From positions 264,927-328,926 of the forward strand of contig JAUSJC010000010.1 in the NCBI GenBank assembly GCA_030647775.1: a DNA stretch of 64,000 nucleotides, given 5' to 3'. Below the pieces are notes generated by a model. The model ran no database searches, had not been told where the DNA came from, and saw nothing but the letters and a program-made list of their open reading frames with translations. Position numbers and translations under genes: made by a program. Within the stretch, counting starts at the first letter, position 1. The number at the start of each line of letters is the position of its first letter. Source of the DNA: Candidatus Curtissbacteria bacterium. GTDB lineage: Bacteria; Patescibacteriota; Microgenomatia; Curtissbacterales; GWA2-41-24. Below, in pieces: positions 11,456 to 64,000 of this stretch.

Positions 11456-12208
11456 ATGAAAGGCGTAATTTTAGCCGGCGGTCTTGGTACCCGCCTTTAT
11501 CCCTTAACCCACGCGACCAATAAACATCTACTTCCGGTTTTTGATAAGCCGATGATCTATTACCCCATAAAGACGCTTGTTGATGCCGGCATTGATGAGA
11601 TTTTAATTATTGTCGGCGGCCCCCACGCCGGAGATTTTATTAGGGTTCTTAAAAACGGTCAGGATTTCGGCGTCAAACATCTGGAATATGCTTATCAGGA
11701 TTCCGGTGACGGGGGAATAGCCGATGCTCTCCGCCTGGCACGTGATTTTGCGGACCATGATTCAGTTACCGTAATCCTTGGAGATAATTGTACCGATGCG
11801 GATATCGGAAAGGAAGTTAAAAATTTTAAAGAAGGCGCAGTTATTTTCTTAAAAGAAGTTCCGGATCCCGAGCGTTTTGGAATTGTCGAGCTTGACCCAA
11901 AGGACAAAACAAGGGTGGTTGATATTGCCGAGAAACCCCAGAAACCAAAAACAAATTTAGCTGTTACCGGTCTATATATTTACGACAGCAATGTCTTTCA
12001 TCATATAGAAACGATTAAACCTTCTGCCCGCGGACAATTGGAAATTACGGATGTAAACAATATTTATGTCAAAGAAGGCAATTTGCGCTGGGCGCCGCTT
12101 TCCGGCTTTTGGTCAGACGCCGGAACGTTTGAAAGTCTTTATCGGACTAGTGTTTATTGGGCAAGGAAAAACCTCGGCAAAGAAGAAAAAGAACTAACAA
12201 CCTTCTAA
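11456..12208 (+). CDS. rmlA: Glucose-1-phosphate thymidylyltransferase-like nucleotidyltransferase (short RmlA form)
   Basis: MKGVILAGGLGTRLYPLT then NKHLLPV. It sits ahead of the rmlB, rmlC and rmlD homologs. Confidence 0.8.
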   Translation: MKGVILAGGLGTRLYPLTHATNKHLLPVFDKPMIYYPIKTLVDAGIDEILIIVGGPHAGDFIRVLKNGQDFGVKHLEYAYQDSGDGGIADALRLARDFADHDSVTVILGDNCTDADIGKEVKNFKEGAVIFLKEVPDPERFGIVELDPKDKTRVVDIAEKPQKPKTNLAVTGLYIYDSNVFHHIETIKPSARGQLEITDVNNIYVKEGNLRWAPLSGFWSDAGTFESLYRTSVYWARKNLGKEEKELTTF

Positions 12209-12209
12209 T

Positions 12210-12344
12210 ATGAAACTCCTTATTACCGGTGGCGCCGGATTCTTAGAGTATGGAGTTACTCTGGGTTTTGAAAAAATACCTAGAGTAACGCAACACTCGC
12301 AAAACGGAGGAATCAACCAAATGCTTGTAGACAAATCAAAATAA
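12210..12344 (+). pseudogene. Remnant of an SDR epimerase/dehydratase N-terminus (MKLLITGGAGF...) followed by unrelated sequence
   Basis: The 44-codon ORF begins MKLLITGGAGF, the Rossmann start shared by rmlB and the other epimerases here, then degenerates. A strong RBS (acggagg) precedes an internal in-frame ATG at 12321, giving a 7-codon mini-ORF just before rmlB. Confidence 0.35.
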
Positions 12345-12351
12345 ACAATTC

Positions 12352-13365
12352 ATGAGTAAGATTTTAGTAACAGGCGGCGCCGGCTTTATCGGAAGCAACT
12401 TTATCTACTATTGGTTAAAAAATCATTCCCAAGACCAAGTAATTAACTACGATAAACTTACCTATTCGGGAAATTTAGAAAATCTCAAAAGCATAGAGTC
12501 AAACAAAAATTATTCTTTTATCCACAGTGATATTGCCGATGCTAAAAAAATTGGGGATGCGCTAAAAGGAGTCGATACTGTTGTAAACTTTGCCGCCGAA
12601 AGCCACGTTGATAGGTCAATTCTCGATCCGGCATCATTTATCCTGACCAATGTTGTTGGTACGCAAGTTCTTCTTGATGCCGCCCGCGATGCAAAAATTA
12701 AAAGGTTTCATCACATCTCAACCGATGAGGTCTTTGGGTCTCTTGATCTTGACTCAAAAGAGAAATTCACGGAAACCACCCCTTATAATCCGAGAAGCCC
12801 ATATGCCGCTTCCAAAGCCGCCTCCGACCATCTCGTCCGTGCCTACTTTCATACTTATGATTTACCAATTACTATCTCCAATTGCGCCAACAACTTTGGC
12901 CCTTACCACTTTCCGGAAAAACTAATCCCCCTTGCCATTACCAATATCCTGGAAGGCAAAAAAGTGCCGGTTTATGGCGACGGCCTTTATGTCCGCGAAT
13001 GGCTGTATGTCGAAGATCATTGTTCCGGTATCGAAAAAGTCTTGGAAAATGGGAAAATCGGCGAGACTTATCTTATCGGTATAGACATGGATATCCCCAA
13101 TATTGAAGTCATCAAAAAAATCCTGCGGCTCCTGTCAGCCAGTGATGATCTAATCGAATACGTTAAAGATCGCCCCGGCCATGACCGCCGGTACGCAATC
13201 GACTCGGCAAAAATCCGAAAAGAACTTGGTTGGGAACCAAAGTACGATTTTGACGAAGCTCTGGCCCTTACCGTAAAGTGGTATCAGGATAATCAAAATT
13301 GGTGGAAGAAACTCAAGGACAAAAGTTATAATGATTATTACAAGAAGCAGTATATAAAAAGATAA
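12352..13365 (+). CDS. rmlB: dTDP-glucose 4,6-dehydratase
   Basis: MSKILVTGGAGFIGSNF, the YDKLTYSGNLENL motif and the catalytic YAASKAASD segment. Length is 337 aa. Confidence 0.9.
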   Translation: MSKILVTGGAGFIGSNFIYYWLKNHSQDQVINYDKLTYSGNLENLKSIESNKNYSFIHSDIADAKKIGDALKGVDTVVNFAAESHVDRSILDPASFILTNVVGTQVLLDAARDAKIKRFHHISTDEVFGSLDLDSKEKFTETTPYNPRSPYAASKAASDHLVRAYFHTYDLPITISNCANNFGPYHFPEKLIPLAITNILEGKKVPVYGDGLYVREWLYVEDHCSGIEKVLENGKIGETYLIGIDMDIPNIEVIKKILRLLSASDDLIEYVKDRPGHDRRYAIDSAKIRKELGWEPKYDFDEALALTVKWYQDNQNWWKKLKDKSYNDYYKKQYIKR

Positions 13366-13904
13366 TGAACTACCAATACCTCAATTTAGAAAACCGGAAA
13401 GATTTAATCGACGGTGTGATTGTCCGCAAGCTAATAATCCATAAAGATGAATCAGGCAGTTTAGTTGAAACCTTAAGACGCGATTGGCAGGATGTTTTTA
13501 ATGACACGAATCTTTCGTTTGCCATGCAATATATGTCTATTACGCCGTCCGGCATTGCGCGCGACGAAGACAAATGGCACGTCCACAAATTTCAAAAAGA
13601 CCGTTTCATCTGTACTTCCGGGAAAATTGTAACCGCTATTTTCGATCCCCGCGAAGGATCCAAAACAAATGGAAAATTAAATCTTTTTGCAATGAGTCCG
13701 AGTAAAGTTGAAGAAATGTATATGGTTGTAATTCCCGAAAATACTTATCATGGTTTTATGGTTGTTTCCAAAGAACCGGCCCATCTTTTAAATTTTCCAA
13801 CCCAACTTTACAATACTGAAGATGAAGGTCGTATTCCAAATACCCAATTCTCTTGGGTAAAAGCCCGGGAAGATTTTGGGCTGCCATCTCTTTCCCTAAA
13901 ATAA
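13365..13904 (+). CDS. rmlC: dTDP-4-dehydrorhamnose 3,5-epimerase family protein (cupin)
   Basis: 179-aa cupin with the RmlC-like C-terminal pattern LYNTEDEGRIPNTQFSW. It sits between rmlB and rmlD. Confidence 0.65.
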   Translation: MNYQYLNLENRKDLIDGVIVRKLIIHKDESGSLVETLRRDWQDVFNDTNLSFAMQYMSITPSGIARDEDKWHVHKFQKDRFICTSGKIVTAIFDPREGSKTNGKLNLFAMSPSKVEEMYMVVIPENTYHGFMVVSKEPAHLLNFPTQLYNTEDEGRIPNTQFSWVKAREDFGLPSLSLK

Positions 13905-14812: not shown

Positions 14813-14866
14813 TTGACCATTTTTAGCTAAAATGTCCTATACCCGATGCCCATCGGGCTAGTTAAT

Positions 14867-16171
14867 ATGACTTTAACAATTGTAGGCGCTGGATATGTTG
14901 GTCTTGTCACCGCTGCCGTTTTTTCCGAACTCGGCAATAAAGTTTATTGCATTGATGTCGACAAGAAAAAAGTCGAAGGCCTTAAAAAAGGTAAAGTACC
15001 GTTTTTTGAACCCTCTCTCGAAGAATTTATCAAAAGGAACACCCAGGCAAAAAGACTTTTCTTTACCGCAAGTTACGCGGAATCGGTTCCCAAATCCCAG
15101 ATTGTTTTTATATGCGTCGGCACCCCTCCCAAAGAAAATGGAGAAGCTAATCTTACTTATCTGTTTTCCGCTGTTGAAGAAACCGCCAAAAACCTTTCAG
15201 GATATACCCTGATTACCATTAAAAGTACCATTCCCATTGGCCACGAAGGTGACTTGGAAGCAATTGTCAAAAAAAATGCCAAAGCCAAGTTTGAATTTGC
15301 CGCCTCGCCGGAATTTTTAAGGGAAGGGACAGCCCTGGAAGACACCCTGCATCCGGACAGGATTGTCATTGGCACTGCCAGCACCAAGGCCCAAAAACTG
15401 CTTTTAGAGCTGCATGCTCCCATTTCCGGGGAAAGAATCATTTGTGATATAAGATCCGCCCAGCTTATAAAATATGCTTCAAATTCACTTTTAGCAACGA
15501 AGGTTTCCTTTGCAAATGCCCTTGCCACCCTGTGTGAAAAAATGGGAGCAGATGTTAAAAAAGTCTTATTGGGAGTAGGAGCCGACAAGCGCATCGGCCA
15601 TTCTTTTCTTTATCCGGGCGTAGGCTATGGTGGCTCTTGCCTCCCCAAAGATGTCTTGGCTTTTATTGCTCTTTCTTCTCATTTTGGTTACGACTTTGAA
15701 CTAATCCGTGCCGTTGATGCCATCAATAATAACCAAATTGAATCTTTTATAGTCAAAATCCAAAATGCTCTTAAAGCAGGAGGCAAAAACGGTAAAACCA
15801 CGGCGGGTAAAGAATTAGCCGTTTTAGGTTTGGCTTTTAAACCAAATACCGACGACATGCGCGATGCGCCATCGATAAAAATTATTAATCACCTAACTGG
15901 CCTTGGTTACAAAGTTACTGCATACGACCCGCAGGCCATGGAAAATGCCAAAAAGGTTCTCCCTGATATTAAATATGCCAAAGATGAGTATCGGGCGGTC
16001 GATGGTAAAGATGCTATGATAATCATCACGGAGTGGTCACAATTTGCAAACCTTGACATGGATCGCGTTAAAAAGCTTTTAAGACACCCCATTATTATCG
16101 ACGGTCGTAATCTCCTGGATCCTGAAAAAATTCAAAGACTTGGATTTAAATACGTTAGCATCGGCAGATGA
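14867..16171 (+). CDS. ugd: UDP-glucose 6-dehydrogenase / nucleotide-sugar dehydrogenase
   Basis: MTLTIVGAGYVGLVTAAVFSELG and the catalytic GGSCLPKD motif. I chose the internal ATG at 14867 over the track start at 14846. Confidence 0.85.
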   Translation: MTLTIVGAGYVGLVTAAVFSELGNKVYCIDVDKKKVEGLKKGKVPFFEPSLEEFIKRNTQAKRLFFTASYAESVPKSQIVFICVGTPPKENGEANLTYLFSAVEETAKNLSGYTLITIKSTIPIGHEGDLEAIVKKNAKAKFEFAASPEFLREGTALEDTLHPDRIVIGTASTKAQKLLLELHAPISGERIICDIRSAQLIKYASNSLLATKVSFANALATLCEKMGADVKKVLLGVGADKRIGHSFLYPGVGYGGSCLPKDVLAFIALSSHFGYDFELIRAVDAINNNQIESFIVKIQNALKAGGKNGKTTAGKELAVLGLAFKPNTDDMRDAPSIKIINHLTGLGYKVTAYDPQAMENAKKVLPDIKYAKDEYRAVDGKDAMIIITEWSQFANLDMDRVKKLLRHPIIIDGRNLLDPEKIQRLGFKYVSIGR

Positions 16172-17157
16172 AAAAAGCCCTAAATTCCGCGCGGAATCAA
16201 GGTTCTTCGAAGAAGGTTCTTATTACCGGAGTTGCCGGTTTTGTCGGCAGCCATCTTACAAAATATTTAATCGCCCAAAATTTCAAAGTAGTCGGTTTCT
16301 TTCACCCCCTGCATTCAACCGAAAATATAAGTTCTCTAAAAGACAAATTAGAGCTTGTGGCATGTGACATCCTAAACTATAAGCAGGTAGAAGAGGAAAT
16401 TGCGGGGATAAAACCGGATTATGTTTTCCATCTTGCCGCATTTTCCTCGCCTTCGCAAAGTCTTCAAAATCCCCGCCAGACCTTGGAAAATAATATTTTC
16501 GGCCAGATCAACATACTAGATTCACTTGTAAAAATAAAATCCAATGCCAAAATTTTAATTGTCGGATCAGCTGACGAATATGGAAACGTGGATAAAAAAG
16601 ATTTACCCGTCAAGGAAGATCATCCGCTCTCTCCCGGTTCGCCATATGCCGTTTCAAAGGTTGCACAAGACATGCTTGGTTATCAGTACTTTTTAAATTA
16701 CGGGTTAAACATCGTTAGGGTTAGACCCTCAAACCATATCGGCCCCCGCCAGGCACCGGTCTTTGTTGTGTCGGCATTTGCTTCTCAGATAGCCGTGCTG
16801 GAAAAACAAGGAGGAGGCATTATGAAAGTTGGCAATCTTGAGAGTGAGCGTGATTTTACTGATGTGGGGGATATGGTAAAAGCTTATTTACTGGCTCTTG
16901 ATAGGGGCAAAATCGGAGAAGTCTACAATATCGGTTCGGGGAAAGTAATCAAAATTGGAAAAATATTAGAAATAATGCTTTCGCAAGTGCATGTAAAAAT
17001 AACCCCCCAAAAGGATAATGGACTCTTTCGGCCGACAGAGGTTTTTTATAGTGATCCAACAAAATTTAAAAAACAGACCGGTTGGCAGCCAACTATTCCC
17101 ATCAAGACCACTCTTTTTGATACAATAAACTACGAAAGAGAGAAACTCAAAGTATGA
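16168..17157 (+). CDS. NAD-dependent epimerase/dehydratase, probably a GDP-4-keto-6-deoxy-D-mannose reductase (Rmd/Fcl-like)
   Basis: [14 protein letters not shown] and Y-x3-K in YAVSKVAQD. It lies immediately upstream of gmd and is translationally coupled to it. Confidence 0.65.
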
Positions 17158-18125
17158 AAAGAGTGCTAATCACCGGTATCACTGGACAAGACGGCTCCTA
17201 CCTTGCCGAATTTTTGCTCTCCAAAGGTTATAAGGTTTATGGTCTCACCAGAAGGACATCGACTCCCAATTATGAACGCATCAAACACATCCAGGATCAA
17301 ATTGAACTGCTTCCGGGAGATCTTCTTGACCAGCAGTCGCTAACCTCAGCTGTCGCCAAGGCTAACCCGGACGAAATTTATAACCTCGCCGCCCAAAGTT
17401 TTGTCCAGACGTCATGGTCCCAGCCGGTCTTAACCGGAGAATTTACTGCTCTTGGAGCAACAAGAATGTTGGAAGCCCTAAGACAGGCAAAACCGGGGGC
17501 CAGATTTTATCAGGCTTCTTCATCAGAAATGTTTGGCAAAGCGCACGAAACGCCGCAGAATGAAAATACCCCATTTCACCCAAGAAGCCCCTATGGCGTT
17601 GCCAAAGTCTACGCCCACTGGATTACAATCAACTACAGAGAGTCGTATGACGTTTTTGCTGTTTCCGGGATTCTTTTTAACCATGAATCTCCAAGACGCG
17701 GCTTGGAATTTGTCACCAGGAAAATATCCCACTCCGTTGCCAAAATCCACCTTAAAGAGCAGGACCATATTGTCCTGGGAAACCTTGAGGCAAAACGCGA
17801 TTGGGGTTTTGCCGGCGATTATGTCGAGGCAATGTGGCTAATGCTGCAGCAGTCAAAACCGGATGATTATGTTGTAGCCACAGGTCAAAATCATTCGGTA
17901 AAAGAATTCGTCCAAGAAGCATTTAAGGTGATTGGTATTTCCAATTGGCAAAAATACGTTAAAACCTCGAAAGAATTTGTTCGCCCGGCTGAAGTGGATT
18001 TTTTAATTGGGGACAGTTCTAAAGCAAGAAAGGTTCTTGGATGGAAGCCGAAAGTAAATTTCCGGCAACTCGTAAGAATGATGGTCGAGTCCGATATCAA
18101 GCTTCTTGAGAAAAACCACAGATGA
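17154..18125 (+). CDS. gmd: GDP-mannose 4,6-dehydratase
   Basis: [30 protein letters not shown] is a near-canonical Gmd N-terminus. Also [10 protein letters not shown] and [16 protein letters not shown]. Confidence 0.9.
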
Positions 18126-19324
18126 AACTCGTTGTTAACATCCCAACCTACAATGAAAAAGAAAACATTGAATCCTGCATTAAAAATGTCCTTGCCCAGG
18201 CGAAAAACCTAAAAGGGCTAGATCTCGAGATTTTGGTTTCCGATAGTCATTCACCGGATGGTACGGGCGAAATTGTTAAAAAAATTTCACGAACCAACCC
18301 AAAAGTTCACTATCTGGATGTAAAAGAACGCGGTTTAGGAGTTGGTATCGTCAAGGGCCACAGATACGCTATCGACAAACTAAAAGCGGATATCTTAGCT
18401 CAAATGGATGGGGATCTTTCCCACGATCCGGTGACATTACCGCAAATGATTTCTTTCATAAATCAAGGCTACGATTTAGTCAACGGCTCCAGAATGATAA
18501 AGGGCGGTAAAAATCTTCTTGGGTGGCATCGCAGGCTTTTTACTAGAGGTTCTGCCTTATTTTGCAAATTGAGTTGGGGGACTTTCAAACTCACAGAATA
18601 TACTAATTCATACCGGGTTTTCACGAGAGGACTTTTCCAAAAGATTGATTTTTCCAAAGTCCCATGGAAGTCTAAAACTTATATCATCCAGCCGGCTTTT
18701 TTATATGCGGCAATTGAAGCCGGGGCAAAAATCAAAGAAGTCCCGATTACTTTTCAAGACAGGAAAAAAGGGTATTCAAAAGCCAAGATTGTTGCTTACA
18801 CTTTTGACGTTCTAAGGTTTGGTATTAGGGTCCGTCTGGAAAAATCCGCCACTTTCATTAAGTTCTTGATCGTCGGCACGATGAGTTATTTTGTCAATGC
18901 CGTTTTATTGGGCCTTTTATTTCGCGGCCAAATCTATTCATTAAAAGTTTTACCCGGTCCGATTCTATCTTTTCTTCCCCTCGGTGGAATGGCGGCAAAA
19001 ATTTCTATAATTACTCTAGACCGCCTGTTCATTGCTTCAGTAATCGCCGCGGAAGTTTCAATTATCTTCAACTTTTTTTGGCACGAAAATTGGACTTTTA
19101 AAAACCGTGAGCATAAAGGTTCAATATTCCTGCGGCTTTTTAAATTTAACTCCTCATCGATAATCAGCCCGATTATCCAAGTTGTGAGCATTCAGGTTTT
19201 CTTCCATGTTCTCCACTTGAGTGAGCAAATTGGCCTGGCTGTCGGCGTAATAGTCGGACTGTTCGTAAATTATGCCATCAATATCCTTTGGATTTGGAAA
19301 GCCCATCCCCGGCCCGCTAAATAA
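18122..19324 (+). CDS. GT2 polyprenol-phosphate glycosyltransferase (Dpm1/GtrB-like) fused to a C-terminal GtrA-like 4-TM domain
   Basis: The N-terminal 230 aa form a GT-A fold with DSHSPDG and the D-x-D of QMDGD. The C-terminal 150 aa have four TM helices with the GtrA signature [13 protein letters not shown]. Confidence 0.75.
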
Positions 19325-19325
19325 A

Positions 19326-31639: not shown

Positions 31640-31758
31640 TGATGCCAGAACTGTTCCTGTATTAGGGGCAAGCGCGGTACTTCCACCGCAATGTAGAGCA
31701 TCCGCAACCCAGAAGCGAAAGCACGCCGGGTGCCAGGAAGTTTCAATATAATTGACTC
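31640..31758. ncRNA. Candidate structured RNA or cis-regulatory leader of unknown class
   Basis: About 120 nt of relatively GC-rich non-coding sequence with several potential helices (gcgcggtac...accgc, gccggg...), bracketed by convergent terminator hairpins. I could not match it to SRP, 6S, tmRNA, RNase P or c-di-GMP riboswitch consensus by eye. Confidence 0.2.
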
Positions 31759-31786
31759 GTCCTCTCCGCTTCGAGAGGACTTTTTT
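31759..31786 (+). terminator. Intrinsic terminator on the plus strand
   Basis: gtcctctc-cgcttcg-gagaggac, an 8-bp GC-rich stem, followed by TTTTTTG. Confidence 0.55.
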
Positions 31787-31828
31787 GTTCTTCCACAAAA
31801 AACGCCCGGTACACGAAAGGAAAAATCA

Positions 31829-38164: not shown

Positions 38165-38165
38165 A

Positions 38166-40092: not shown

Positions 40093-40093
40093 C

Positions 40094-47637: not shown

Positions 47638-47660
47638 CTTAAATTTGCTAGAATTAACTC

Positions 47661-55710: not shown

Positions 55711-56208
55711 GTGCATTTTAACGGTTTTTATTTTAATCCACTCTCTGTCAAGATTAATGTCGAATCCCAAACCGGTCTTGATCCTTCAGGCCAAAAGGTA
55801 ATATCAAAAATCTTTCATAATAAAATAGTTACCTTTCCGTTTGAGGCCTCAAAGTCTTTTGCAAAAACAATCGATCCGGGATTCCTCTTAGAAGTACTCG
55901 GCCCGGCGGGGTTTTTACTGCTGATTCTATCTCCGGTCGAAATTTTTAGGAGAAAAAGAAAACTGGGGTTTATCCACTTAACAGTAGTCCTGGCAGTTCT
56001 TATCTTTTCCCTAAGACCAATATCACCCAAAATCGCCTTTTGGGCCGTATCAATATCTTTTTATACCCTTTCTCTTTGGGGCATCGGTGCGGTAGTCAAG
56101 AACAAATATATTAGTTTTTTCTTTATCGTATTAATTTTTTACTCGTTGTGGTATTTTGCTATAAATTGGCAAATGCCGGCACTTTGCAATGAAATCTTTT
56201 TTAACTAA
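55711..56208 (+). CDS. Small membrane protein, paralog of 57688..58134
   Basis: HNKIVTFPFEASKSFAKTIDPGFLLEVLG aligns with HNKIGIYASEFSRCYANVFDPNFIYHTVG of the other copy. There are three C-terminal TM helices. The frame is open upstream to 55633 and encodes a signal-like KKLIFVLLALTFFF segment, but no canonical start codon is present there. Confidence 0.5.
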   Translation: MHFNGFYFNPLSVKINVESQTGLDPSGQKVISKIFHNKIVTFPFEASKSFAKTIDPGFLLEVLGPAGFLLLILSPVEIFRRKRKLGFIHLTVVLAVLIFSLRPISPKIAFWAVSISFYTLSLWGIGAVVKNKYISFFFIVLIFYSLWYFAINWQMPALCNEIFFN

Positions 56209-57691
56209 AAACGTTTTCCTCATTATTATTATGGTAATTGCGGCGGCTTTAAGGTTCTACCAGTTTGGTCAGGATCATCCCAGCCTTTTCGTTGATGAGG
56301 TGTCCAATGGCTATAACGCTTACAGCATTTTAAAAACCGGCCGCGATGAATATGGAAATTTCCTCCCGCTGGTAATTAGGTCATTCGGGGACTATAATCC
56401 GGCTCTCTCCGCATACCTATTAATCCCCTCGATTGCCGTTTTTGGTTTAAACGAAAGTGGCGTCAGGTTTCCGTCGGCACTTCTGGGCACATTGACTGTT
56501 CTTCTGACCTATTTTTTAGTTTTAAAACTCTTAAGAAATAATAAAATCGCCCTGTTTTCAAGTTTTTTTCTGGCTATTTCCCCATGGCACTTACAATTTT
56601 CCCGTTATGACCACGAAGCTAATTTTATGGTCTTTTTTGGCGTTTTAGGTATCGTACTTTTCCTGCATTCGTCAAAAAATCTTCGTTTGCTTATTGCTTC
56701 AACGCTGTCATTCGGTCTTGCCCTCAATTCTTACCAGGGTGCAAAGATTTGGATTCCTGTTCTTTTGACGGTGATCTTTCTTTTCTACCATAAAGAAGTC
56801 CTTGCCTTTAGACATAAGCTCGTTTATCCGTTTATCATCCTGTTAATATTTTGCTTTCCAATCATTTTAAACTTCAAAAGTAGTTTAATCCGCGGCCAAT
56901 CTGTGGGAATTTTGGGTACTCAAAAACCCCTAGAAACATTTATTACCGGGTATCTTTCCCACTACAATCCCAATTTTCTTTTCACTTCAGGAGACAACAT
57001 TGGCCGCCATTCGGTTCCTGGTATGGGCGAGCTTTATATTTTTGAAGCACCGTTGATTGTCTTAGGTCTCCTTTTTCTTGTTCGTCAAAAAACACGGGCC
57101 CCCAAATTCCTTCTGGCATGGCTTCTGGTTGCCGCTATCCCGCCGGCTACAGCCGTTCCTACACCCCATGCACTGCGGGGACTGACATTCATTCCGATTT
57201 GGTCGATAGTTGCCGCCTGCGGCGCAAGTGTCATCTTCTCCGCCAAAATTAAAGGCGGCGCCAAAAAGGGGTTAGTTTTTATTTTGGCAGCTGTTGCCTT
57301 TTACAATATCGTTACTTACTTCCATCTCTACTACAAACATTACCCCAAAGAAAAAGCCCCTGATTGGTCGGACGGCTATAAAGAGATGGTACAGGCCGTG
57401 GATAAGATTAAAGATGGTTATAGCTCTATCGCTATCTCTTCGTACTACGGCCATCCGTATATTTTTACGCTCTTTTACGGAAAGTACGATCCCGTTAAGT
57501 ATCAACCCCAGTCTGCTGATCAAACCAAATTTGACAAATTCGAATTTTTTGGCCCTTCATGGAAAAAGACCAAACCAGGCAAGGCTTTGGTCGTTACGCC
57601 CGAGTGGCAGGCGCATCCCGATAAAGTTTTAAAACAAATATACTCGATAAACGGCGATCTAAGATTTAATATCTCCGAAACAGAACAATGA
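56189..57691 (+). CDS. ArnT/PMT-family GT-C glycosyltransferase, array paralog 4
   Basis: LRFYQFGQDHPSLFVDEVSNGYNAYS and SPWHLQFSR. Confidence 0.75.
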   Translation: MKSFLTKNVFLIIIMVIAAALRFYQFGQDHPSLFVDEVSNGYNAYSILKTGRDEYGNFLPLVIRSFGDYNPALSAYLLIPSIAVFGLNESGVRFPSALLGTLTVLLTYFLVLKLLRNNKIALFSSFFLAISPWHLQFSRYDHEANFMVFFGVLGIVLFLHSSKNLRLLIASTLSFGLALNSYQGAKIWIPVLLTVIFLFYHKEVLAFRHKLVYPFIILLIFCFPIILNFKSSLIRGQSVGILGTQKPLETFITGYLSHYNPNFLFTSGDNIGRHSVPGMGELYIFEAPLIVLGLLFLVRQKTRAPKFLLAWLLVAAIPPATAVPTPHALRGLTFIPIWSIVAACGASVIFSAKIKGGAKKGLVFILAAVAFYNIVTYFHLYYKHYPKEKAPDWSDGYKEMVQAVDKIKDGYSSIAISSYYGHPYIFTLFYGKYDPVKYQPQSADQTKFDKFEFFGPSWKKTKPGKALVVTPEWQAHPDKVLKQIYSINGDLRFNISETEQ

Positions 57692-58134
57692 AAATCTTTT
57701 TACTAATAATATTTTCGGCAGTGATTATTTCAGTTAGGGCAAATGCCAGCCTGCCGATTTGCAATTTGGATACCGCAAAACAAGCTATTCCTCCCCGGAT
57801 TTTTGCCGAACAAACGATAGACGGTAGAGATCAAAATATCACGCTTACCAGATTTTTACACAATAAAATCGGAATTTACGCTTCGGAGTTTAGCAGGTGC
57901 TACGCAAATGTCTTCGACCCCAATTTTATATATCACACCGTTGGGATAGTCGGAATTATCACCTGGCTTTATTTTGTATACCAAATCATCCAAAGAAAAT
58001 ATTATTTTCTGCTTATTGTTCTACTTGCTTTACCTCTTCTGCCGTTTCTAAAATTTTCGCTTCTGCCAATTTTATTTGCCTACAAGCTTTTTGCTATCAT
58101 AGGACTGGGGTTTCTGCTGTCTAAACTAAAATGA
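57688..58134 (+). CDS. Small secreted/membrane protein, paralog of 55711..56208
   Basis: Signal peptide MKIFLLIIFSAVIISVRANA, the conserved HNKIGIYASEF...DPNF block, and two or three C-terminal TM helices. Confidence 0.5.
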   Translation: MKIFLLIIFSAVIISVRANASLPICNLDTAKQAIPPRIFAEQTIDGRDQNITLTRFLHNKIGIYASEFSRCYANVFDPNFIYHTVGIVGIITWLYFVYQIIQRKYYFLLIVLLALPLLPFLKFSLLPILFAYKLFAIIGLGFLLSKLK

Positions 58135-59753
58135 GGAAATATTTACTTCTTGGCATTATCCTTCTGGCCGCAACTTTGAGATTATATAAATTGGCTTCTG
58201 TTCCGCCGTCGCTTTATTGGGACGAAGCATCTTTGGGCTACAATGCATATTCAATTTTAAAGACCGCGCATGATGAGCATGGAAAATTTTTACCACTCAC
58301 CAATTTTGCCGCTTTTGGTGATTACAAACCGCCCGGCTACATCTACGCCGCGGTTCCTTCTATTGCCGTCTTTGGCCTTACCGAATTTGCTATTCGTTTC
58401 CCATCGGCGTTTTTTGGAACGCTGACCGTTTTATTAACTTATCTTCTTGCCAAAAAACTTTTTGAAAAAGAAAAAATTGCGCTTCTTTCGGCCTTTTTTC
58501 TGGCTATTTCCCCATGGCACTTACAATTTTCCCGGGGTGCCTTTGAGGCGAATCTTGGTTTATTTTTAAGTGTTCTTGGAATTTACTTATTTGTAAAATT
58601 TGCAAAAGATAATCAATATTGGATTCTTCTGTCCCTCCTATCGTTTTTAGCCGCCATGTATACCTTTACGGGGCAAAGGTTATTTGTTCCTTTTATTCTG
58701 CTTATTCTTTTCATCCAGTTTAAAAATGCAGTTGTCAAAAATCTCAAAGTTGTTATCCCGGGTATAATTATCTTTGCTTTTCTCTTTTGGCCGCTTTATA
58801 AATTTGCCACCGGTACCATTGAAGGCAGGCTTCGTTTTAACGAGGTTTCAATTTTCAACGATCTGGCGCCGGCAGACGAGTCAACACGCTTAAGGACGAA
58901 AGATAACTTCGCCTGGTGGGCAAATCTAATCCATAACAGGCGCTTAGAGTACGCCCATGAATATCTAGTCCACTATTTCGATGCTTTCAACCCGGCCTTT
59001 CTTTTTACAAAAGGGGATGTTAATCCGAGGCTTTCCGTTCAGGAAGTAGGCGAACTATATCTTATCGATTTGCCGCTAATTTTATCCGGCATTTACTTTC
59101 TTTTTGCCAAAAAACAAAATTTCAGGTTCTTAATTATCGCCTGGTTACTGGTTTCCCCGCTCGGTCCGGCAACAGCCCGCGAAACTCCCCATGCCTTGCG
59201 GATGATTCATATCCTGCCCACATTCCAATTGCTTGCCGCTTTTGGATTTTTTGGCCTTTGGGAAATGATTAAGTACAAAAAAGTCTTCGCCGTTTCTGTT
59301 TTCTTACTGCTTGCGGCCAGTTTTATCTATTATCTCAATATGTACTATATTCACTGGCCAATAAATTATTCGGGGGAGTGGCAATACGGCTATAAACAGG
59401 CTGTCCAGACAGCTAACTTGCAAAAGTCCGCCAATGTTGTTGTCACCAAAAGCCTTGGGAGGCCCTATATCTATTTCCTTCTCTATTCAAAATATGACCC
59501 TGGAGAGTTTTGGGCCACGGGGCAAGTCGTCAGGGATAAATTTTTCTTTCTAGACGTTAACGGTTTTGGTAAATATCACTTTGTTGACGATGTAAATCAA
59601 GCAAAAGTCTCCGGCGAAACCGTCTACGTTTCACCTCCCGGGAGTGTTCCAAAAGGAGCCCAAGTAATTGATACGATCTTAAACCTCGATGGCAGCCCGA
59701 CCTTGGTCATTTCAAAGAAGAACGTGCCGAATCCTCCCGATAATAAAAACTAA
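58131..59753 (+). CDS. ArnT/PMT-family GT-C glycosyltransferase, array paralog 5
   Basis: LRLYKLASVPPSLYWDEASLGYNAYS, YKPPGY, and SPWHLQFSR. Confidence 0.75.
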   Translation: MRKYLLLGIILLAATLRLYKLASVPPSLYWDEASLGYNAYSILKTAHDEHGKFLPLTNFAAFGDYKPPGYIYAAVPSIAVFGLTEFAIRFPSAFFGTLTVLLTYLLAKKLFEKEKIALLSAFFLAISPWHLQFSRGAFEANLGLFLSVLGIYLFVKFAKDNQYWILLSLLSFLAAMYTFTGQRLFVPFILLILFIQFKNAVVKNLKVVIPGIIIFAFLFWPLYKFATGTIEGRLRFNEVSIFNDLAPADESTRLRTKDNFAWWANLIHNRRLEYAHEYLVHYFDAFNPAFLFTKGDVNPRLSVQEVGELYLIDLPLILSGIYFLFAKKQNFRFLIIAWLLVSPLGPATARETPHALRMIHILPTFQLLAAFGFFGLWEMIKYKKVFAVSVFLLLAASFIYYLNMYYIHWPINYSGEWQYGYKQAVQTANLQKSANVVVTKSLGRPYIYFLLYSKYDPGEFWATGQVVRDKFFFLDVNGFGKYHFVDDVNQAKVSGETVYVSPPGSVPKGAQVIDTILNLDGSPTLVISKKNVPNPPDNKN

Positions 59754-61243
59754 TGAAATATCTTCGTAAACTAAATTTTTTAGCTCTGGTAGTTCCAGTC
59801 TATTTTGCAACAAGGCTTGTTAATTTTTTAATTATCCCGATTTTTACCGATGAGGCAATCTATAGCTATTGGGCCCAAGTCGCCCTTCACGATCCCGCCA
59901 ATCGGTTTATATCTTTAGAAGACGGGAAACAGCCTCTTTTTATCTGGCTGGCGGCTATCTTTCAGAGATTAATTTCTGATCCTTTGGTGGCAACTCGTCT
60001 CGTTTCGGTTTTTGCCGGTCTTGGGTCTTTACTGGGGGTTTACTTTCTAGCCCGTGAATTGTTTGGCACAAAAGTTGCCAAAATTGCCGGCGTTCTTTAT
60101 ATAATTTTACCCTTCACCCTGCTTTATGACCGCATGGCTCTTTTTGATTCGCTCCTAACCATGTTTTGCGTCTGGTCAGTCTTTCTGACTTATAAGATGG
60201 CTAAAAGCCCTCGCCTCGACTACGCGCTGCTCAATGGAATTATTTTGGGTCTCGGCTTAATAACCAAATCCTCAATAAGCTTTTTCCTGTATCTTCTTCC
60301 GGCATCACTCATAGTTTTTGATTTCAAAAAAGAGCTGTTAATAAAACGTTTATCAAAGTGGCTAGGGTTGTCCGTAATAACTTTTGCCATATCCGAAACA
60401 ATTTATAATGCACTTCGAGTTTCCCCTCTCTTTTACATGATCGACCGCAAAAACCATGAGTTTATTAGAACTTTTTCCGAGGTTATCAAAAATCCATTCC
60501 TGCATTTTTCCGGAAACATCAATAGCATGGCTACATGGTTATTCCAATACAATGGGCCGCTTATTTTGGTAGTTCCGGCCGTGATGATTTATGGATTGGC
60601 AAAGAAGGACAAAAGAATAATTCTTCTTTCGGTATACATCTTGGTGCCTTTTTTGGCTAAAGCTCTTTTCAATCAAATTTTATATCCGAGGTTTTCTTTA
60701 TTCTATTTCCCATTTATTATTATTTTAATTAGTTTTGGTATAAGTTTAACTTTGGCGTCGTTATCAAAATATAAAGGGTTAGTCTGGACTGTGCTTTCGG
60801 CTTTAATAATTTTTCCGCTGGTCTCGTCATTTTATTTGCTGACAAATCCCCCCAAAGCTGGTATTGCTGGTTCCGATAAATTCCAATATATAAACGGTTG
60901 GTCTTCCGGATATGGAATCCGCCAAATCGTCAATATTTTAAAAACGGGAAACTCCAAAGAGAAAGTTTATGTGGGGACAGAAGGCACTTTTGGTCTTTTA
61001 CCATTCGCCTTGCAAATCTATTTTTATGGCAACCCGAATATTCAAGTGGTAGGTTATTGGCCTGTCGGAAGCCTTCCAAAACAGGTTTTAGATTCGGCCA
61101 AAACCCAAAAAACTTATTTCATCTTTTACCAAAACCAAAATCTCCCGCAAATGGACGATCTTGCTCACTTGAAATTAATTGGCAAATATCAAAAAGGTAA
61201 CGGTGCAAACTTTATGAGTTTTTACGAAGTTAATGGAAACTAA
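59753..61243 (+). CDS. PMT/ArnT-family GT-C glycosyltransferase, divergent subfamily
   Basis: IIPIFTDEAIYSYWAQV carries a D-E loop, and the protein has about 12 TM helices. Its sequence family differs from that of the flanking paralogs. Confidence 0.65.
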   Translation: MKYLRKLNFLALVVPVYFATRLVNFLIIPIFTDEAIYSYWAQVALHDPANRFISLEDGKQPLFIWLAAIFQRLISDPLVATRLVSVFAGLGSLLGVYFLARELFGTKVAKIAGVLYIILPFTLLYDRMALFDSLLTMFCVWSVFLTYKMAKSPRLDYALLNGIILGLGLITKSSISFFLYLLPASLIVFDFKKELLIKRLSKWLGLSVITFAISETIYNALRVSPLFYMIDRKNHEFIRTFSEVIKNPFLHFSGNINSMATWLFQYNGPLILVVPAVMIYGLAKKDKRIILLSVYILVPFLAKALFNQILYPRFSLFYFPFIIILISFGISLTLASLSKYKGLVWTVLSALIIFPLVSSFYLLTNPPKAGIAGSDKFQYINGWSSGYGIRQIVNILKTGNSKEKVYVGTEGTFGLLPFALQIYFYGNPNIQVVGYWPVGSLPKQVLDSAKTQKTYFIFYQNQNLPQMDDLAHLKLIGKYQKGNGANFMSFYEVNGN

Positions 61244-62913
61244 TGAAAGGCAAACTTATCCTTCTGGTTATCATTCTAATTGCAGCACTGCTCAGATTAA
61301 TTAACCTCGGATCAATACCTGTCGGTTTTAACGATGATGAAGCCGCTTTTGGCTACAATGCTTATTCAATTTTAAAAACGGGTCAAGATGAGTGGGGAAG
61401 GAAAATCCCTTTTCCGGTCTTTGAAAGTTTTGGTGACTGGAAGCTAGTCGGTTACTTGTATATGACTGTAGTTTCAGTGAAATTCTTTGGTCTGAACGAA
61501 TTTGCGACAAGATTCCCTTCAGTGTTATTTGGGATTCTTTCTGTTTTTGCTACCTATCTTTTATCAAAAAAACTTTTCAACAGGGAAATTGCTTACGGTG
61601 CGGCCTTTTTGCTTGCAATCTCACCCTGGCACATTGTCGCTTCTAGGAACGCCTTTGAATCAGACGTATTAATATTCTTAATTACAATTTCGGCATATTT
61701 CTTTCTATGCGGTTTACAAAAGAGCAAATATTTGCTTCTTTCCTATTTAGGATTTATAGCTAGTTTTTATATCTATAGATCCAGCTGGATTTTCGTACCC
61801 CTGTTCATTCTAACTCAAACCTATTTTTTCAGAAGCCGGATTAAAAAAGCGGTTTTAAAACACTCCAAATATTTTATCGCCATAACTTTTTTGATATTAC
61901 CTTTAATTCCTGTTGTATTAACATTTAAAGGTCAATCTAGGTTTATTCAAGAGAGTTTTATTTCCGGAACTTCTAAAATTGGTATCATAAATAACATTAA
62001 TGAAAAACGGGGATTGTGCCAAACCAAAATACCGGACATTGTCTGTAGACTTATCCATAATAAATATAGCTATTTTGCAAACACTTACATAAACAACTAT
62101 TTAGGAAATTTGTCGGGTGTGACATTCTTTAATAAGGCAAACCCGACCGGTTTTCAATCTTTTGCAACAAGAAGCGTTTTTTATATTTTTGAGCTGCCTT
62201 TACTAATTGCCGGTCTTATCTTTCTTTTTAAAAATAAAAACCAAGGCGCAAAAATACTAATTCCGTGGTTATTATTAGTCCCGGTCGGAGCATCAATGGT
62301 TGGCATTGGAAATTTTGGTCGGATCAACATTATTATGCCGGCTCCTCAGATAATAGAAGCCTTCGGATTTTTTTCCCTTTTCGGTTTCCTAAAAAAAATA
62401 GAATTAAGGAAAATGACCTTAATATTTGTAATATTTATTGTTTCGATTTCATTTTTAGAATTTATTTCAGAACTGTTTCTGGTTGAACCCTATACAACCG
62501 CAAGAGCCGGAAGATATGGCTACAAAGGGCTTTTTAACTATCTGGAATCCCAGGAAAATAGCTACAGTCAAATTCTTATTTCTAAAAAAATTGATAGTAG
62601 TCATCAATACATTCAATACGTCTTCTTTCAAAAGATAAATCCTCAGTATTTTATTGCAAGCGCCAATCGCCCCAAAGCAGATAACGGTTGGGTAGATTTT
62701 GAAAGCATAGGCAAGTATGAATTTGTTCACTCAATGCCCGATGTTCCAAAAATTCCCAAAAATACGCTGGGAGTGGTGGGTGAAAATGAAGTTGAATACC
62801 CAATTCCTCCAAAATTTATAATACGAGATTTAAGAGGGGACATTTTATTTAAAATCTTCGATATTGACGAAGTAAAAGAAAAGTTGCAGGCGAATATAAA
62901 TAAAAATTCATAA
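61243..62913 (+). CDS. ArnT/PMT-family GT-C glycosyltransferase, array paralog 6
   Basis: LRLINLGSIPVGFNDDEAAFGYNAYS and SPWHIVASR. Confidence 0.75.
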   Translation: MKGKLILLVIILIAALLRLINLGSIPVGFNDDEAAFGYNAYSILKTGQDEWGRKIPFPVFESFGDWKLVGYLYMTVVSVKFFGLNEFATRFPSVLFGILSVFATYLLSKKLFNREIAYGAAFLLAISPWHIVASRNAFESDVLIFLITISAYFFLCGLQKSKYLLLSYLGFIASFYIYRSSWIFVPLFILTQTYFFRSRIKKAVLKHSKYFIAITFLILPLIPVVLTFKGQSRFIQESFISGTSKIGIINNINEKRGLCQTKIPDIVCRLIHNKYSYFANTYINNYLGNLSGVTFFNKANPTGFQSFATRSVFYIFELPLLIAGLIFLFKNKNQGAKILIPWLLLVPVGASMVGIGNFGRINIIMPAPQIIEAFGFFSLFGFLKKIELRKMTLIFVIFIVSISFLEFISELFLVEPYTTARAGRYGYKGLFNYLESQENSYSQILISKKIDSSHQYIQYVFFQKINPQYFIASANRPKADNGWVDFESIGKYEFVHSMPDVPKIPKNTLGVVGENEVEYPIPPKFIIRDLRGDILFKIFDIDEVKEKLQANINKNS

Positions 62914-64000
62914 TGTTGAAAAACAAGTTATTTTTAATCATAATTTGTTTGGCACTCGTCTTGAGATTCTATAAGTTAGGGCAAATTCCGCTTTCTCTGG
63001 ATTGGGATGAGGCCAGTAATGCTTATAATGCCTATTCCATCCTAAAAACCGCCCGTGACGAATACGGTACTTTTCTTCCCCTTACCAACAGGTCGTTTGA
63101 TGATTACAAACCGCCTCTTTACATGTATCTTAATGTCCCGACAGTCGCTATTTTTGGTTTAACTCCATTTGCCGCAAGGTTCCCATCGGCATTTTTTGGG
63201 TTTCTGACGGTACTGGCTATTTATTTTCTGGTCAAGAAATTATTTAACCAGAAGATTATGGCTCTTACCGCTATGTCTCTGCTTACAATTTCCCCATGGC
63301 ATATCCAGTTTTCCAGAGTAGGTTTTGAGGCCAATGTCGGCCTTTTTACGGCAGTGGCGGCAGTCACGGCGTTCCTTTACGGACTTAAGAACTGGAAATT
63401 CTTGATTCTTTCAAGCATTTTTCTGGGGCTTTCCATGTACAGTTACCATACAGAAAGAATGGTTGCACCCCTACTTTTTTTGTCGGCTTTCATAATTTGG
63501 AGAAAAGAAGTGTTTTCCCTTTCCAAAAAATACTTAAGCCTGTTTGTAGTAATTTCCGTCTTGATTATCTTACCGCTGGTAATATTCACCCCCCAGAAGG
63601 TTATCCTTCAAAGGTTCGAGACAACCACCGCCAATAGCACGCTGGACGATATCAATAAATCGATTAAATTTATTCGACAGGATCAGGATGCCCATTTTCC
63701 GCTTGGAAACATTATTGACAATAGAAGGGTTATTATTGCAAAAACTTATCTTACAAATTATTTGTCCCATTTTAGTTTCAACTTCCTCTTTATAAAAGGC
63801 GATGATAACTTCAGGCATCACGTTGAAGGTTTTGGTATGCTTTATCTCTTTGAACTGCCCCTTTTAATTCTGGGTGTTATAAGATTAGTTAGAGAGAAAA
63901 ATAAAGCAAAATATTTTGTTTTTGCTTGGCTGCTTATCTCGCCGATTGCGGCCGCCCCGGCTAGCCCTAGCCCTCATGCCGTAAGGTCACTGCCGGAAGT
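62913..64000 (+). CDS. ArnT/PMT-family GT-C glycosyltransferase, array paralog 7 (3' end beyond window)
   Basis: ATG at 62913, giving MLKNKLFLIIICLALVLRFYKLGQIPLSLDWDEASNAYNAYS, YKPPLY, and SPWHIQFSR. The frame is open to the window end. It is absent from the ORF track only because no stop lies inside the window. Confidence 0.7.
   Translation, partial: MLKNKLFLIIICLALVLRFYKLGQIPLSLDWDEASNAYNAYSILKTARDEYGTFLPLTNRSFDDYKPPLYMYLNVPTVAIFGLTPFAARFPSAFFGFLTVLAIYFLVKKLFNQKIMALTAMSLLTISPWHIQFSRVGFEANVGLFTAVAAVTAFLYGLKNWKFLILSSIFLGLSMYSYHTERMVAPLLFLSAFIIWRKEVFSLSKKYLSLFVVISVLIILPLVIFTPQKVILQRFETTTANSTLDDINKSIKFIRQDQDAHFPLGNIIDNRRVIIAKTYLTNYLSHFSFNFLFIKGDDNFRHHVEGFGMLYLFELPLLILGVIRLVREKNKAKYFVFAWLLISPIAAAPASPSPHAVRSLPE

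Follow-up and report, generated by a model that had tools for sequence, protein, structure and literature searches.

A 64,000-nucleotide stretch of DNA from Candidatus Curtissbacteria bacterium (NCBI GenBank assembly GCA_030647775.1, contig JAUSJC010000010.1; hereafter the window) contains a large locus dominated by membrane glycosyltransferases (GTs) of the GT-C type. We inventoried the locus through a Pfam scan of every main open reading frame (ORF) between positions 11456 and 64000, together with an NCBIfam scan of the enzymes; genes without a name are referred to by their first position in the window. From rmlA (11456) to the window end there are 43 genes, 42 of them on the plus strand, and 31 of the 42 junctions overlap when maximal ORFs are counted. 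This agrees with an earlier prediction made from the bare sequence (hereafter the original prediction), which had described a glycosylation region of more than 50 kb with co-directional, overlapping genes. The region is contiguous over more than 53 kb and runs past the window end. Two contigs assembled from sequencing run SRR13727527 are 100% identical to the window at the nucleotide level, and contig L082 of this genome shows the locus extending beyond base 64000. The 2.3 kb of downstream sequence available from L082 complete the last gene of the window, 62913, and reveal after it a minus-strand PMT_2 gene of 519 amino acids (aa).

Exactly 17 GT-C genes were identified in the window, where the original prediction had estimated about 17. 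Ten are PMT/PMT_2 genes (19272, 23896, 50592, 52267, 53856, 56189, 58131, 59753, 61243, and 62913), in keeping with the at least eight ArnT-like genes anticipated; two encode YfhO proteins (25298 and 42621) and three encode YfhO/PTPS_related proteins (27754, 34855, and 48911), precisely the two YfhO and three YfhO-like paralogs foreseen; one is an MptA_B member and one was assigned by its predicted fold. Together these genes account for 28.0 of the 52.5 kb between rmlA and the window end (53%). All 17 candidates contain 6–15 hydrophobic segments in a hydropathy scan, and the DSSP helix pattern of two predicted models likewise agrees with polytopic membrane proteins. Similarity to the GT-C fold comes from predicted structures for two of the 17 and, for the other 15, from matches to the Pfam families PMT, PMT_2, YfhO, PTPS_related, and MptA_B, which belong to the Pfam GT-C clan. 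Eight of the ten PMT_2-type genes also exceed the Pfam threshold for PMT (GT39; PF02366, 26.9–55.7 bits, cut-off 22.7).

The last 15 kb of the window form a tandem array of GT-C genes, all on the plus strand, that begins at 48911 and continues beyond position 64000. A PTPS_related/YfhO-like gene (48911–50662; PTPS_related 35.8 bits) heads the array and is followed by eight further GT-C genes: four with PMT/PMT_2 matches in Pfam (50592–52274, 52267–53865, 53856–55646, and 56189–57691), a fifth at 58131–59753, a divergent sixth that matches PMT_2 only and is a distant relative of the other members (59753–61243), a seventh at 61243–62913, and an eighth that starts at 62913, ends beyond 64000, and is 522 aa at its full length on L082. 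Seven of these (50592, 52267, 53856, 56189, 58131, 61243, and 62913) are mutually 30–45% identical. All seven paralogs have collinear orthologs at 56–84% identity in the related locus L085 (81% for 56189 and 84% for 58131, the latter also having a 64% identical ortholog in locus L083), and the ortholog of the leading gene 48911 in L085 is 64% identical. Since orthologs across genomes are far closer than paralogs within the same genome, the duplications appear to be old and the copies retained, which indicates that the array paralogs are ancient and non-redundant.

Residues D31-E32, D48-E49, R89xPS, and SPWH are invariant among 30 aligned proteins, comprising six in-window members and 24 orthologs. 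They are also invariant, with the third motif reading R89-F-P-S, in a 13-sequence alignment that includes the seven array paralogs and for which full-length 62913 was taken from L082. Identity between paralogs is 55–57% over residues 1–140, which span the first four transmembrane (TM) segments and the catalytic loop, compared to 26–30% elsewhere; among orthologs, too, evolution is fastest in the C-terminal periplasmic domain, which has about 110 residues (48% identity). This combination of a conserved N-terminal donor-binding and catalytic module with a divergent C-terminal periplasmic module suggests that the paralogs share a type of donor and differ in their acceptors or linkages. The only PDB sequence found by the array-family profile is ArnT (5EZM; E 0.006), over 160 residues covering TM3–7. 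No match to the MIR domain was obtained in any Pfam scan, and the WWDYG motif with which the C-terminal soluble domain begins in STT3, AglB, and PglB was not encountered. All 29 related metagenome loci that span 15 kb or more carry two to seven tandem members (median four), one member per locus being guaranteed by the way the loci were retrieved.

The GT-C genes outside the array, also on the plus strand, are more diverse. The PMT_2 gene 19272–20831 (49 bits) contains a GDE motif after TM1 and has a 65% identical ortholog in locus L002. Gene 22688–23899 encodes a protein of the MptA/MptB family with about ten hydrophobic, putatively membrane-spanning segments; this assignment stems from a precomputed PF26314 match on an identical gene in L001, and the Pfam copy that we scanned directly gave no match. 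It is followed by a weak PMT_2 member (23896–25356; 27.4 bits, cut-off 26.1; 13 hydrophobic segments) and by a pair scoring 72.7 and 44.4 bits against YfhO, namely a YfhO protein of about 801–818 aa (25298/25349–27754) and a YfhO/PTPS_related protein (27754–29343; PTPS_related 34.7 bits), with L002 orthologs at 66% and 58% identity, respectively. Further downstream lie a PTPS_related/YfhO-like gene (34855–36705) that scores exactly at the PTPS_related cut-off of 26.4 bits and is 30% identical to 27754 (E 4e-64), and a second large YfhO gene (42621–44981; 786 aa; 95.7 bits) that is 30% identical to 25298 and 49% identical to its ortholog in L083.

The remaining candidate, 33379–34764, encodes a protein of 461 aa and about 12 TM segments that has no Pfam match. 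Its predicted fold assigns it to the GT-C enzymes, and the motif Q-D-D-W after TM1 is invariant, with D31-D32 invariant in 33 homologs. Its family comprises 544 representative clusters at E ≤ 1e-30 and 13,707 at E ≤ 1e-10, where it grades into the wider PMT_2 family. We considered whether 33379 could be a missing Wzy polymerase or O-antigen ligase and rejected this, given the GT-C fold with the QDDW loop motif and the absence of a WaaL or Wzy fold among the structural matches. A DE pair also follows TM1 in 19272 and 59753; statements on the acidic motif of loop 1 refer to the array family, 33379, 19272, and 59753. From knowledge of these families and from the dolichyl-phosphate mannose synthase (DPMS)-like enzymes encoded beside them, we infer that the GT-C proteins use lipid-phosphate-linked donors on the non-cytoplasmic face of the membrane.

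Such donors could be produced by several of the eight GT2 genes in the locus (18122, 21802, 32633, 38166, 39193, 40070, 44957, and 45849), a number somewhat below the ten or so originally predicted. The product of 18122–19324 (plus strand, as are all GT2 genes) fuses a GT2 domain to a four-TM domain of GtrA/DPMS type (Glycos_transf_2 and GtrA_DPMS_TM, E 1.4e-16). Among solved structures it is closest to Pyrococcus DPMS (5MLZ; E 1.4e-34), with ArnC and GtrB next, and it is probably a polyprenyl-phosphate sugar synthase. Three others are candidate lipid-phosphate-sugar synthases with matches under the family cut-offs: 21802–22623 (Pfam GT2 97 bits), of PgfS/ArnC/DPMS type, for which the top NCBIfam matches are EpsD, PgfS, ArnC, AglJ, and dolichyl-phosphate hexose transferase; the PgfS/ArnC-like 32633–33382 (Pfam GT2 87.7 bits), which is 27% identical to 18122 and matches PgfS (E 1.5e-20) and ArnC (E 5e-14); and 45849–46637, assigned by Pfam and NCBIfam to the AglJ/PpgS/DPMS type, whose sole PDB match is again 5MLZ (E 3.5e-6). 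A DPMS-like GT2 gene followed by one or more GT-C genes is a recurring order in the locus: 18122 precedes 19272, 21802 precedes the genes from 22688 to 27754, 32633 precedes 33379 and 34855, and 45849 lies ahead of the array.

The 5′ part of the locus is devoted to sugar-nucleotide synthesis, again on the plus strand. The genes rmlA (11456–12208; Pfam NTP_transferase 192 bits), rmlB (12352–13365; GDP_Man_Dehyd/Epimerase), rmlC (13365–13904; dTDP_sugar_isom 46 bits), and rmlD (13853/13943–14812; RmlD_sub_bind 146 bits; start 13943 according to the Logan gene call) would together supply dTDP-L-rhamnose. A UDP-glucose-dehydrogenase-like NDP-sugar 6-dehydrogenase (14846–16171) has three UDPG_MGDP_dh domains and matches NCBIfam subfamily TIGR03026 at 438 bits (cut-off 190) and a TuaD-like model at 486 bits, the latter under the equivalog cut-off; it probably supplies UDP-glucuronate. 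A short-chain dehydrogenase/reductase (SDR; 16168–17157) overlaps by 4 nt with gmd (17154–18125), which encodes GDP-mannose 4,6-dehydratase (TIGR01472 443.7 bits, equivalog cut-off 415). The two proteins are 29% identical and would provide a GDP-6-deoxyhexose. Of the reductase partner that had been proposed for gmd, the coupling is thus real and the enzyme itself is identified as an SDR only. An SDR epimerase/reductase (29322–30299; Pfam Epimerase 188 bits) adjoins a UDP-ManNAc-dehydrogenase-like NDP-sugar dehydrogenase with UDPG_MGDP_dh domains (30257–31564); in NCBIfam this pair yields TIGR03026 at 317 bits and a GDP-fucose-synthase-like match of 119 bits that is under its cut-off. Two further SDRs, 16168 and 29322, therefore lie in the range where at least three SDR epimerases had been expected, and a third, GalE at 6652, which passes the NCBIfam equivalog cut-off, lies upstream of it.

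Between the sugar-nucleotide genes and the array is a stretch that looks like a cytoplasmic repeat-unit module (36692–46637), consisting of Wzx, five GT2 genes, a methyltransferase, and a GT4 gene, with the YfhO gene 42621 interposed. The Wzx-type flippase of the MOP family (36692–38164, plus strand) matches Polysacc_synt_3 (183 bits) as well as Polysacc_synt and MurJ; in NCBIfam it resembles MOP flippases and the O-glycosylation Wzx at about E 1e-34, under the cut-offs. Pfam and NCBIfam place the following plus-strand genes as GT2 (38166–39071), rhamnosyltransferase-like GT2 (39193–40092), GT2 (40070–40879), methyltransferase (40872–41621), GT4 (41618–42667), and GT2 (44957–45877), and the candidate synthase 45849 closes the module. 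The inventory of the original prediction, which named rmlABCD, gmd, ugd-like and wecC-like dehydrogenases, a GT4, a Wzx, and a methyltransferase, was recovered in these scans with minor corrections. No window ORF matched Bac_transf, Glycos_transf_4, Wzy_C, Wzz, or LytR_cpsA_psr at a Pfam E ≤ 1e-3, and Pfam scans of the window ORFs revealed no Tag/Tar genes.

The locus is collinear in other Curtissbacteria at 47–84% amino-acid identity. Contig MFBU01000022 has the order gmd, GT2-GtrA, PMT_2, pyrB, GT2, MptA/B, YfhO, YfhO-like, and SDR at 58–79% identity; it lacks 23896 (no ortholog of which was found in L002) and carries an extra insertion of 2.9 kb. In L085, each array gene and each of the two small proteins encoded within the array has a single collinear ortholog (56–84% identity). 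L083, on a contig of 975,962 bp, has the order GT4, YfhO, GT2, GT2, a minus-strand phosphopantetheine adenylyltransferase/dephospho-CoA kinase (PPAT-DPCK) fusion, pyrC, and array; its array has six members, and orthologs of 52267, 53856, and 56189 are missing from it, as are those of the small proteins. In four relatives, the sequence 3′ of the array encodes a GT2, a GT4, a PIG-V/GT87-like GT-C protein, and an SMR-like membrane protein of 122 aa, and the locus that reaches furthest, L168, has an additional GT2, an SDR, and a DUF2304 protein downstream. The SMR/EamA-like protein (L168:18497-18865 and L083:21262-21630) scores 26.3 bits against PF00893 (cut-off 23.7) and adjoins the PIG-V/GT87-like GT-C gene and a GT2 gene, an association that recalls the ArnE/F flippases for undecaprenyl-phosphate sugars. 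Such a protein is probably also encoded just past this window.

One relative, L167 (134.8-kb contig), departs from this pattern. At 6051–10004 and 16917–17661 several of its array positions are occupied by fragments of 191, 165, 354, 120, and 96 aa, a few of which match PMT weakly, and restriction-modification genes take the place of pyrC upstream. The fragments could stem either from decay and rearrangement of the array or from assembly frameshifts.

The original prediction had called the region an island. It is indeed one contiguous locus, though not a mobile or horizontally acquired one: integrase, transposase, and tRNA genes are absent, the GC content is near that of the flank, and synteny, including that of pyrB and pyrC, is kept in relatives. 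At 0.37–0.43, compared to 0.43–0.45 in the flank, GC content is slightly lower in the locus, as expected for membrane proteins. The lineage has thus inherited the locus vertically, with some members gained or lost along the way.

Two pyrimidine genes are embedded in the locus, as originally predicted. Aspartate carbamoyltransferase (pyrB; 20828–21748, plus strand; OTCace_N and OTCace) has a 70% identical ortholog at the same position in MFBU01000022, and its nearest species representative, Curtissbacteria RIFCSPLOWO2_02_41_11, is at 70% identity. Dihydroorotase (pyrC; 47661–48734, plus strand; TIGR00857 283.4 bits, cut-off 279) occupies the same position in L083 and L168. In eight of nine other Patescibacteria loci (those listed being L011, L015, L016, L022, L025, L052, L058, and L079), pyrC lies 0–2.6 kb downstream of pyrB. 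In the window the two are 25.9 kb apart with glycosylation genes between them, and Curtissbacteria keep each gene at its position; most simply read, this arrangement suggests that glycosylation genes accumulated within an ancestral pyrB-pyrC pair. The pyrimidine genes would then be passengers, with pyrB presumably co-transcribed with the preceding GT-C gene 19272, which it overlaps by 4 nt. The sole minus-strand gene of the locus (46624–47832) encodes a fusion of an archaeal-type PPAT with a GTP-dependent DPCK (CTP_transf_like and DUF359; NCBIfam PRK00777 134.7 bits, cut-off 104). It is kept at the same place beside pyrC in L083 (330 aa) and L168, its true start is probably near 47620, and it is not a glycosylation gene.

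The array also encodes two small membrane proteins of three to four TM segments, both on the plus strand. The first (55711–56208) has no Pfam match and a 73% identical ortholog in L085. The second (57688–58134) is restricted to Curtissbacteria: its family has 69 homologs, all named ones of which are from Curtissbacteria, and it lies between the same two array members in all four contexts examined, with the same position in L085, L167, and L168. Similarity between the two proteins is weak, and both marginally resemble the external loop 4 (EL4) motif of the array GT-C proteins, IHNRRLxY..YL..Y.D.F.P.FLF (E 0.0013 and 0.19 in a 55-sequence database). A role as GtrA or SMR flippases was considered and rejected, as Pfam offered no support even at an E of 5; they may be accessory subunits or derived fragments of GT-C proteins. 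Elsewhere in the locus, 31730–32617 (plus strand) encodes a soluble protein of 295 aa with neither a Pfam or NCBIfam match nor a TM segment; its N-terminal third appears disordered.

Two 21-nt tandem repeats mark the 5′ ends of genes in the locus. One, of 7.3 near-perfect copies (53881–54035; Tandem Repeats Finder score 294), lies in the GT-C gene 53856, and the other, of 3.5 copies (40874–40946; score 132), in the methyltransferase ORF 40872; both begin within about 20 nt of the ORF ATG. They are in frame and, if translated, would read (IRRKALL)x7 at 53881 and (NKHSFSS)x3 at 40874. The repeat units are mutual reverse complements with two to three mismatches, in opposite orientations, and hold the palindrome GCAGA-N5-TCTGC. 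The 21-nt unit has ten matches in the window and none in shuffled sequences, and it was not found in the 166 other loci fetched to that point; in L085, the ortholog of 53856 lacks the repeat and is shorter by about 50 aa. The repeats may form an N-terminal extension of variable copy number or serve as a regulatory element. Scans for promoters and terminators were uninformative, with 52 promoter-like matches compared to 42 expected and 38 terminator-like matches compared to 23 expected, the latter surplus being due mostly to the tandem repeat.

The 11 kb upstream of the locus encode bacterial proteins of division and housekeeping, namely RF2, FtsE, FtsX, a PcsB-like M23 peptidase, and a TsaE-TsaC fusion. 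The fusion (Sua5/YrdC; 401 aa) and a subsequent ORF of 102 aa span 4951–6489; this ORF matches a TsaD/TsaB profile over residues 30–84 only and may be a truncated TsaB. A protein of 306 aa encoded at 4071–4991 has a signal peptide, a C-terminal TM anchor, a linker of about 75 residues rich in Pro, Ser, and Thr, and a weakly CBM_4_9-like N-terminal region (E 0.013), with Ser and Thr making up 25% of the whole. Encoded 6.5 kb upstream of the locus, it is a plausible candidate acceptor for O-glycosylation.

We hold it probable, with moderate confidence, that this locus is the main cell-envelope glycan factory of Candidatus Curtissbacteria, most likely in the form of a greatly expanded multi-component transmembrane glycosylation system. 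In such systems, a GT-A enzyme makes a C55-phosphate sugar, a flippase translocates it across the bilayer, and a GT-C enzyme of YfhO or PMT_2 type transfers it to an extracellular acceptor (Rismondo et al., PMC8035078). This logic of synthase, flippase, and GT-C is established for the YfhO and PMT_2 enzymes of Firmicutes (PMC8035078), and a similar logic glycosylates the Ser/Thr-rich regions of streptococcal membrane proteins (PMC12041528). By homology, cytoplasmic enzymes of the Curtissbacteria locus would supply dTDP-L-rhamnose and UDP-glucuronate along with a GDP-6-deoxyhexose and another uronic acid. The DPMS/GtrB/ArnC-like GT2 enzymes 18122, 21802, 32633, and 45849 would load single sugars onto polyprenyl phosphate, with clear homology for the first and weaker homology for the other three. 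The lipid-linked sugars would then be flipped, the candidates being the GtrA-like TM domain of 18122, Wzx 36692, and the SMR-like protein found downstream in relatives. Finally, the GT-C proteins, 17 within the window and no fewer than 19 across the entire locus, would transfer the sugars to acceptors on the outer face; here the fold and the catalytic motif are observed features, and the chemistry, the lipid-linked nature of the donors, and action outside the membrane are expectations from family knowledge that extend the observed family membership, conserved catalytic residues, synteny, and relations between paralogs and orthologs. The cytoplasmic GT2/GT4/methyltransferase module and Wzx probably supply a lipid-linked oligosaccharide as primer or acceptor.

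As to the final acceptor, we lean toward a complex secondary cell-wall or membrane-anchored heteroglycan that would be extended and branched outside the cell. This is preferred because many non-redundant GT-C enzymes face few donors, and because of the MptA/B-like and PIG-V/GT87-like members; mycobacterial lipomannan, lipoarabinomannan, and arabinogalactan and side-chain addition to streptococcal rhamnopolysaccharides offer analogues. Some of the GT-C enzymes may instead O-glycosylate Ser/Thr/Pro-rich surface proteins. Several points weigh against the envelope-glycan system as a whole. The organism is uncultured. Among the GT2 enzymes, only 18122 is strongly similar to a lipid-phosphate-sugar synthase, and the assignments of sugar specificity all lie under NCBIfam equivalog cut-offs, except for gmd and the upstream GalE. 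In the Pfam scans, a stand-alone GtrA-type flippase is absent from the window, as are an initiating phosphoglycosyltransferase, a polymerase, and a cell-wall ligase, which may lie elsewhere in the genome. The acceptor pathway can therefore not be reconstructed, in line with the original prediction that the acceptor is not identifiable from sequence; genes for acceptor synthesis are not recognizable in the window.

The strongest rival, and a serious one, is that the GT-C battery serves mainly PMT-type O-glycosylation of different Ser/Thr/Pro-rich surface proteins, pilins, or S-layer proteins, perhaps as homo- and heterodimers like fungal Pmt1-7, which we regard as rather unlikely. Such a role would fit the eight genes above the GT39 threshold, the invariant Asp-Glu of loop 1 as a PMT-type motif, and the secreted, anchored protein with a Pro/Ser/Thr linker encoded upstream at 4071–4991. 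It also has a precedent in streptococci, where GtrB and a GT-C enzyme modify Ser/Thr-rich disordered regions (PMC12041528). One or two GT-C enzymes suffice for this in known bacteria, however, and the MptA/B-like protein here and the PIG-V/GT87-like protein in relatives have counterparts that build polymers in mycobacteria. PMT_2 members moreover act on teichoic acids and lipid A as well (PMC8035078). The window contains no pilin or S-layer gene. Relative to the GT39 family (fungal Pmt1-7 and actinobacterial Pmt) and to streptococcal GtrB/PgtC2 and Pgf, the array shares PMT matches over threshold, the loop-1 Asp-Glu, and, as in fungi, multiple paralogs; in contrast, it has a C-terminal periplasmic β-rich domain of about 110 residues in place of an MIR domain, and the predicted fold appears equally similar to ALG12, ArnT, and STT3. 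Actinobacterial Pmt is not known to contain MIR either, and the absence of this domain is thus compatible with protein glycosylation. Common ground with ArnT (GT83) consists of 5EZM as the sole PDB match of the array profile and of the database annotation of the family as "ArnT-like", but the sequence similarity is very weak and arnA, arnB, and arnD are absent from the window. The substrate of ArnT is also probably lacking, because candidate phyla radiation (CPR) bacteria are reported not to synthesize lipid A (PMC5220378, for a Parcubacterium).

It is highly improbable that the envelope-glycan locus is an O-antigen, capsule, or teichoic-acid locus of the ordinary Wzx/Wzy-dependent kind, unusual in size only. 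The presence of rmlABCD, ugd, gmd, Wzx, GT2 and GT4 enzymes, a methyltransferase, and a classical repeat-unit module at 36692–46637 would be typical of such loci. Nevertheless, Pfam scans of the window reveal no initiating transferase of WecA/WbaP type, Wzy, Wzz/PCP, LCP ligase, or Tag/Tar protein, and we do not class the locus as a Wzx/Wzy system for want of the initiating transferase, Wzy, Wzz, and LCP ligase. The one polytopic protein that is both unassigned and suitably placed, 33379, has a predicted GT-C fold, and 53% of the locus encodes GT-C proteins. Nor does it match a well-known O-antigen or teichoic-acid locus with established synteny in characterized relatives, the finding with which the original prediction would have been at odds; it is conserved in uncultured Curtissbacteria only, and GT-C genes dominate it. 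Similarly improbable is the proposal that the array is a surface-variation device for evading phages or hosts, like serotype-converting gtr clusters, whose members are gained, lost, or switched: the varying array size (six members and the missing genes of L083), the absence of 23896 from L002, the fragmented members in L167, and the near-perfect repeats at the 5′ ends of two genes would suit it, but most members have collinear orthologs (56–84%), the paralogs are old (30–45%), no recent duplication, invertible promoter, recombinase, or mobile-element gene was seen in the window, and a 21-nt period preserves the reading frame and is therefore not a simple on/off switch.

The envelope-glycan system most resembles GtrA/GtrB/GtrV of enterobacterial phages and CsbB-GtcA-YfhO and GtlA-GtcA-GtlB of Bacillus, Listeria, and Staphylococcus. 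It shares with them the order of a GT2 lipid-phosphate-sugar synthase followed by a YfhO or PMT_2 GT-C enzyme, a GtrA-type TM domain (here fused to 18122), and an acidic motif in the first external loop of the GT-C protein. It differs in that 17 to at least 19 GT-C enzymes and about four candidate synthases are encoded in one locus, compared to one to three pairs in known organisms; in addition, stand-alone GtrA and genes for lipoteichoic or wall teichoic acids were not seen in the window, and the host belongs to the CPR and probably has a genome of about 1 Mb. By analogy, the locus also recalls the assembly of lipomannan/lipoarabinomannan (LAM) and arabinogalactan in mycobacteria and corynebacteria (Ppm1, PimE, MptA/B/C, Emb, and Aft), where many non-redundant GT-C enzymes would likewise draw on few polyprenyl-phosphate sugars; common elements are the MptA/B-family member, a DPMS-type synthase, and the PIG-V/GT87-like member in relatives. 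In contrast to those pathways, it shows no sequence-level orthology to Emb or Aft and no decaprenyl-phospho-arabinose pathway, and a tandem array of the PMT_2 subfamily predominates. The components are of known kinds; what is unusual is the clustering of 17 to at least 19 GT-C enzymes at a single locus in a genome of some 1 Mb, together with the conserved tandem array and the lineage-specific parts, namely the small proteins and the 33379 family.

Earlier work has drawn attention to abundant glycosyltransferases and rml genes in the genomes of CPR bacteria (PMC5220378; PMC11809585), and the structure and biogenesis of the CPR/Patescibacteria envelope are stated to be unclear (PMC5220378). In full-text literature searches on CPR, Patescibacteria, Microgenomates, and Curtissbacteria, we found no description of GT-C arrays or of this locus. 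The gene inventory bears out the original view of a very large investment in cell-surface glycoconjugates, with the share of coding capacity resting on contig sizes (527 kb for the contig of this metagenome-assembled genome and 0.74–1.15 Mb for the largest related contigs) rather than on a whole-genome census; the related loci on contigs of 0.74–1.15 Mb suggest a genome of about 1 Mb. If so, the density of GT-C enzymes per megabase would be several times that of M. tuberculosis.

These findings bear on how CPR bacteria build their surface. CPR/Patescibacteria live attached to or dependent on other cells, a lifestyle probably mediated by surface glycans. With over half of its DNA encoding GT-C enzymes, this conserved locus points to the enzymes that make this surface. 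The paralogs, which have a catalytic module in common and differ in their acceptor modules, constitute a natural experiment in GT-C specificity, the 33379 family is a GT-C family missed by current profile libraries, and the four candidate lipid-sugar synthases are testable handles. More tentatively, and with considerable doubt on our part, Curtissbacteria might build their principal envelope glycan almost wholly outside the membrane, with some 20 non-redundant GT-C enzymes fed by few polyprenyl-phosphate sugars. This would be an independent invention of the mycobacterial strategy for LAM and arabinogalactan, with lineage-specific parts that include the Pfam-orphan GT-C family, the small array proteins found only in Curtissbacteria, and the 21-nt repeats that start two genes. 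If true, such an outer-face assembly line would represent a previously unknown type of bacterial cell envelope.

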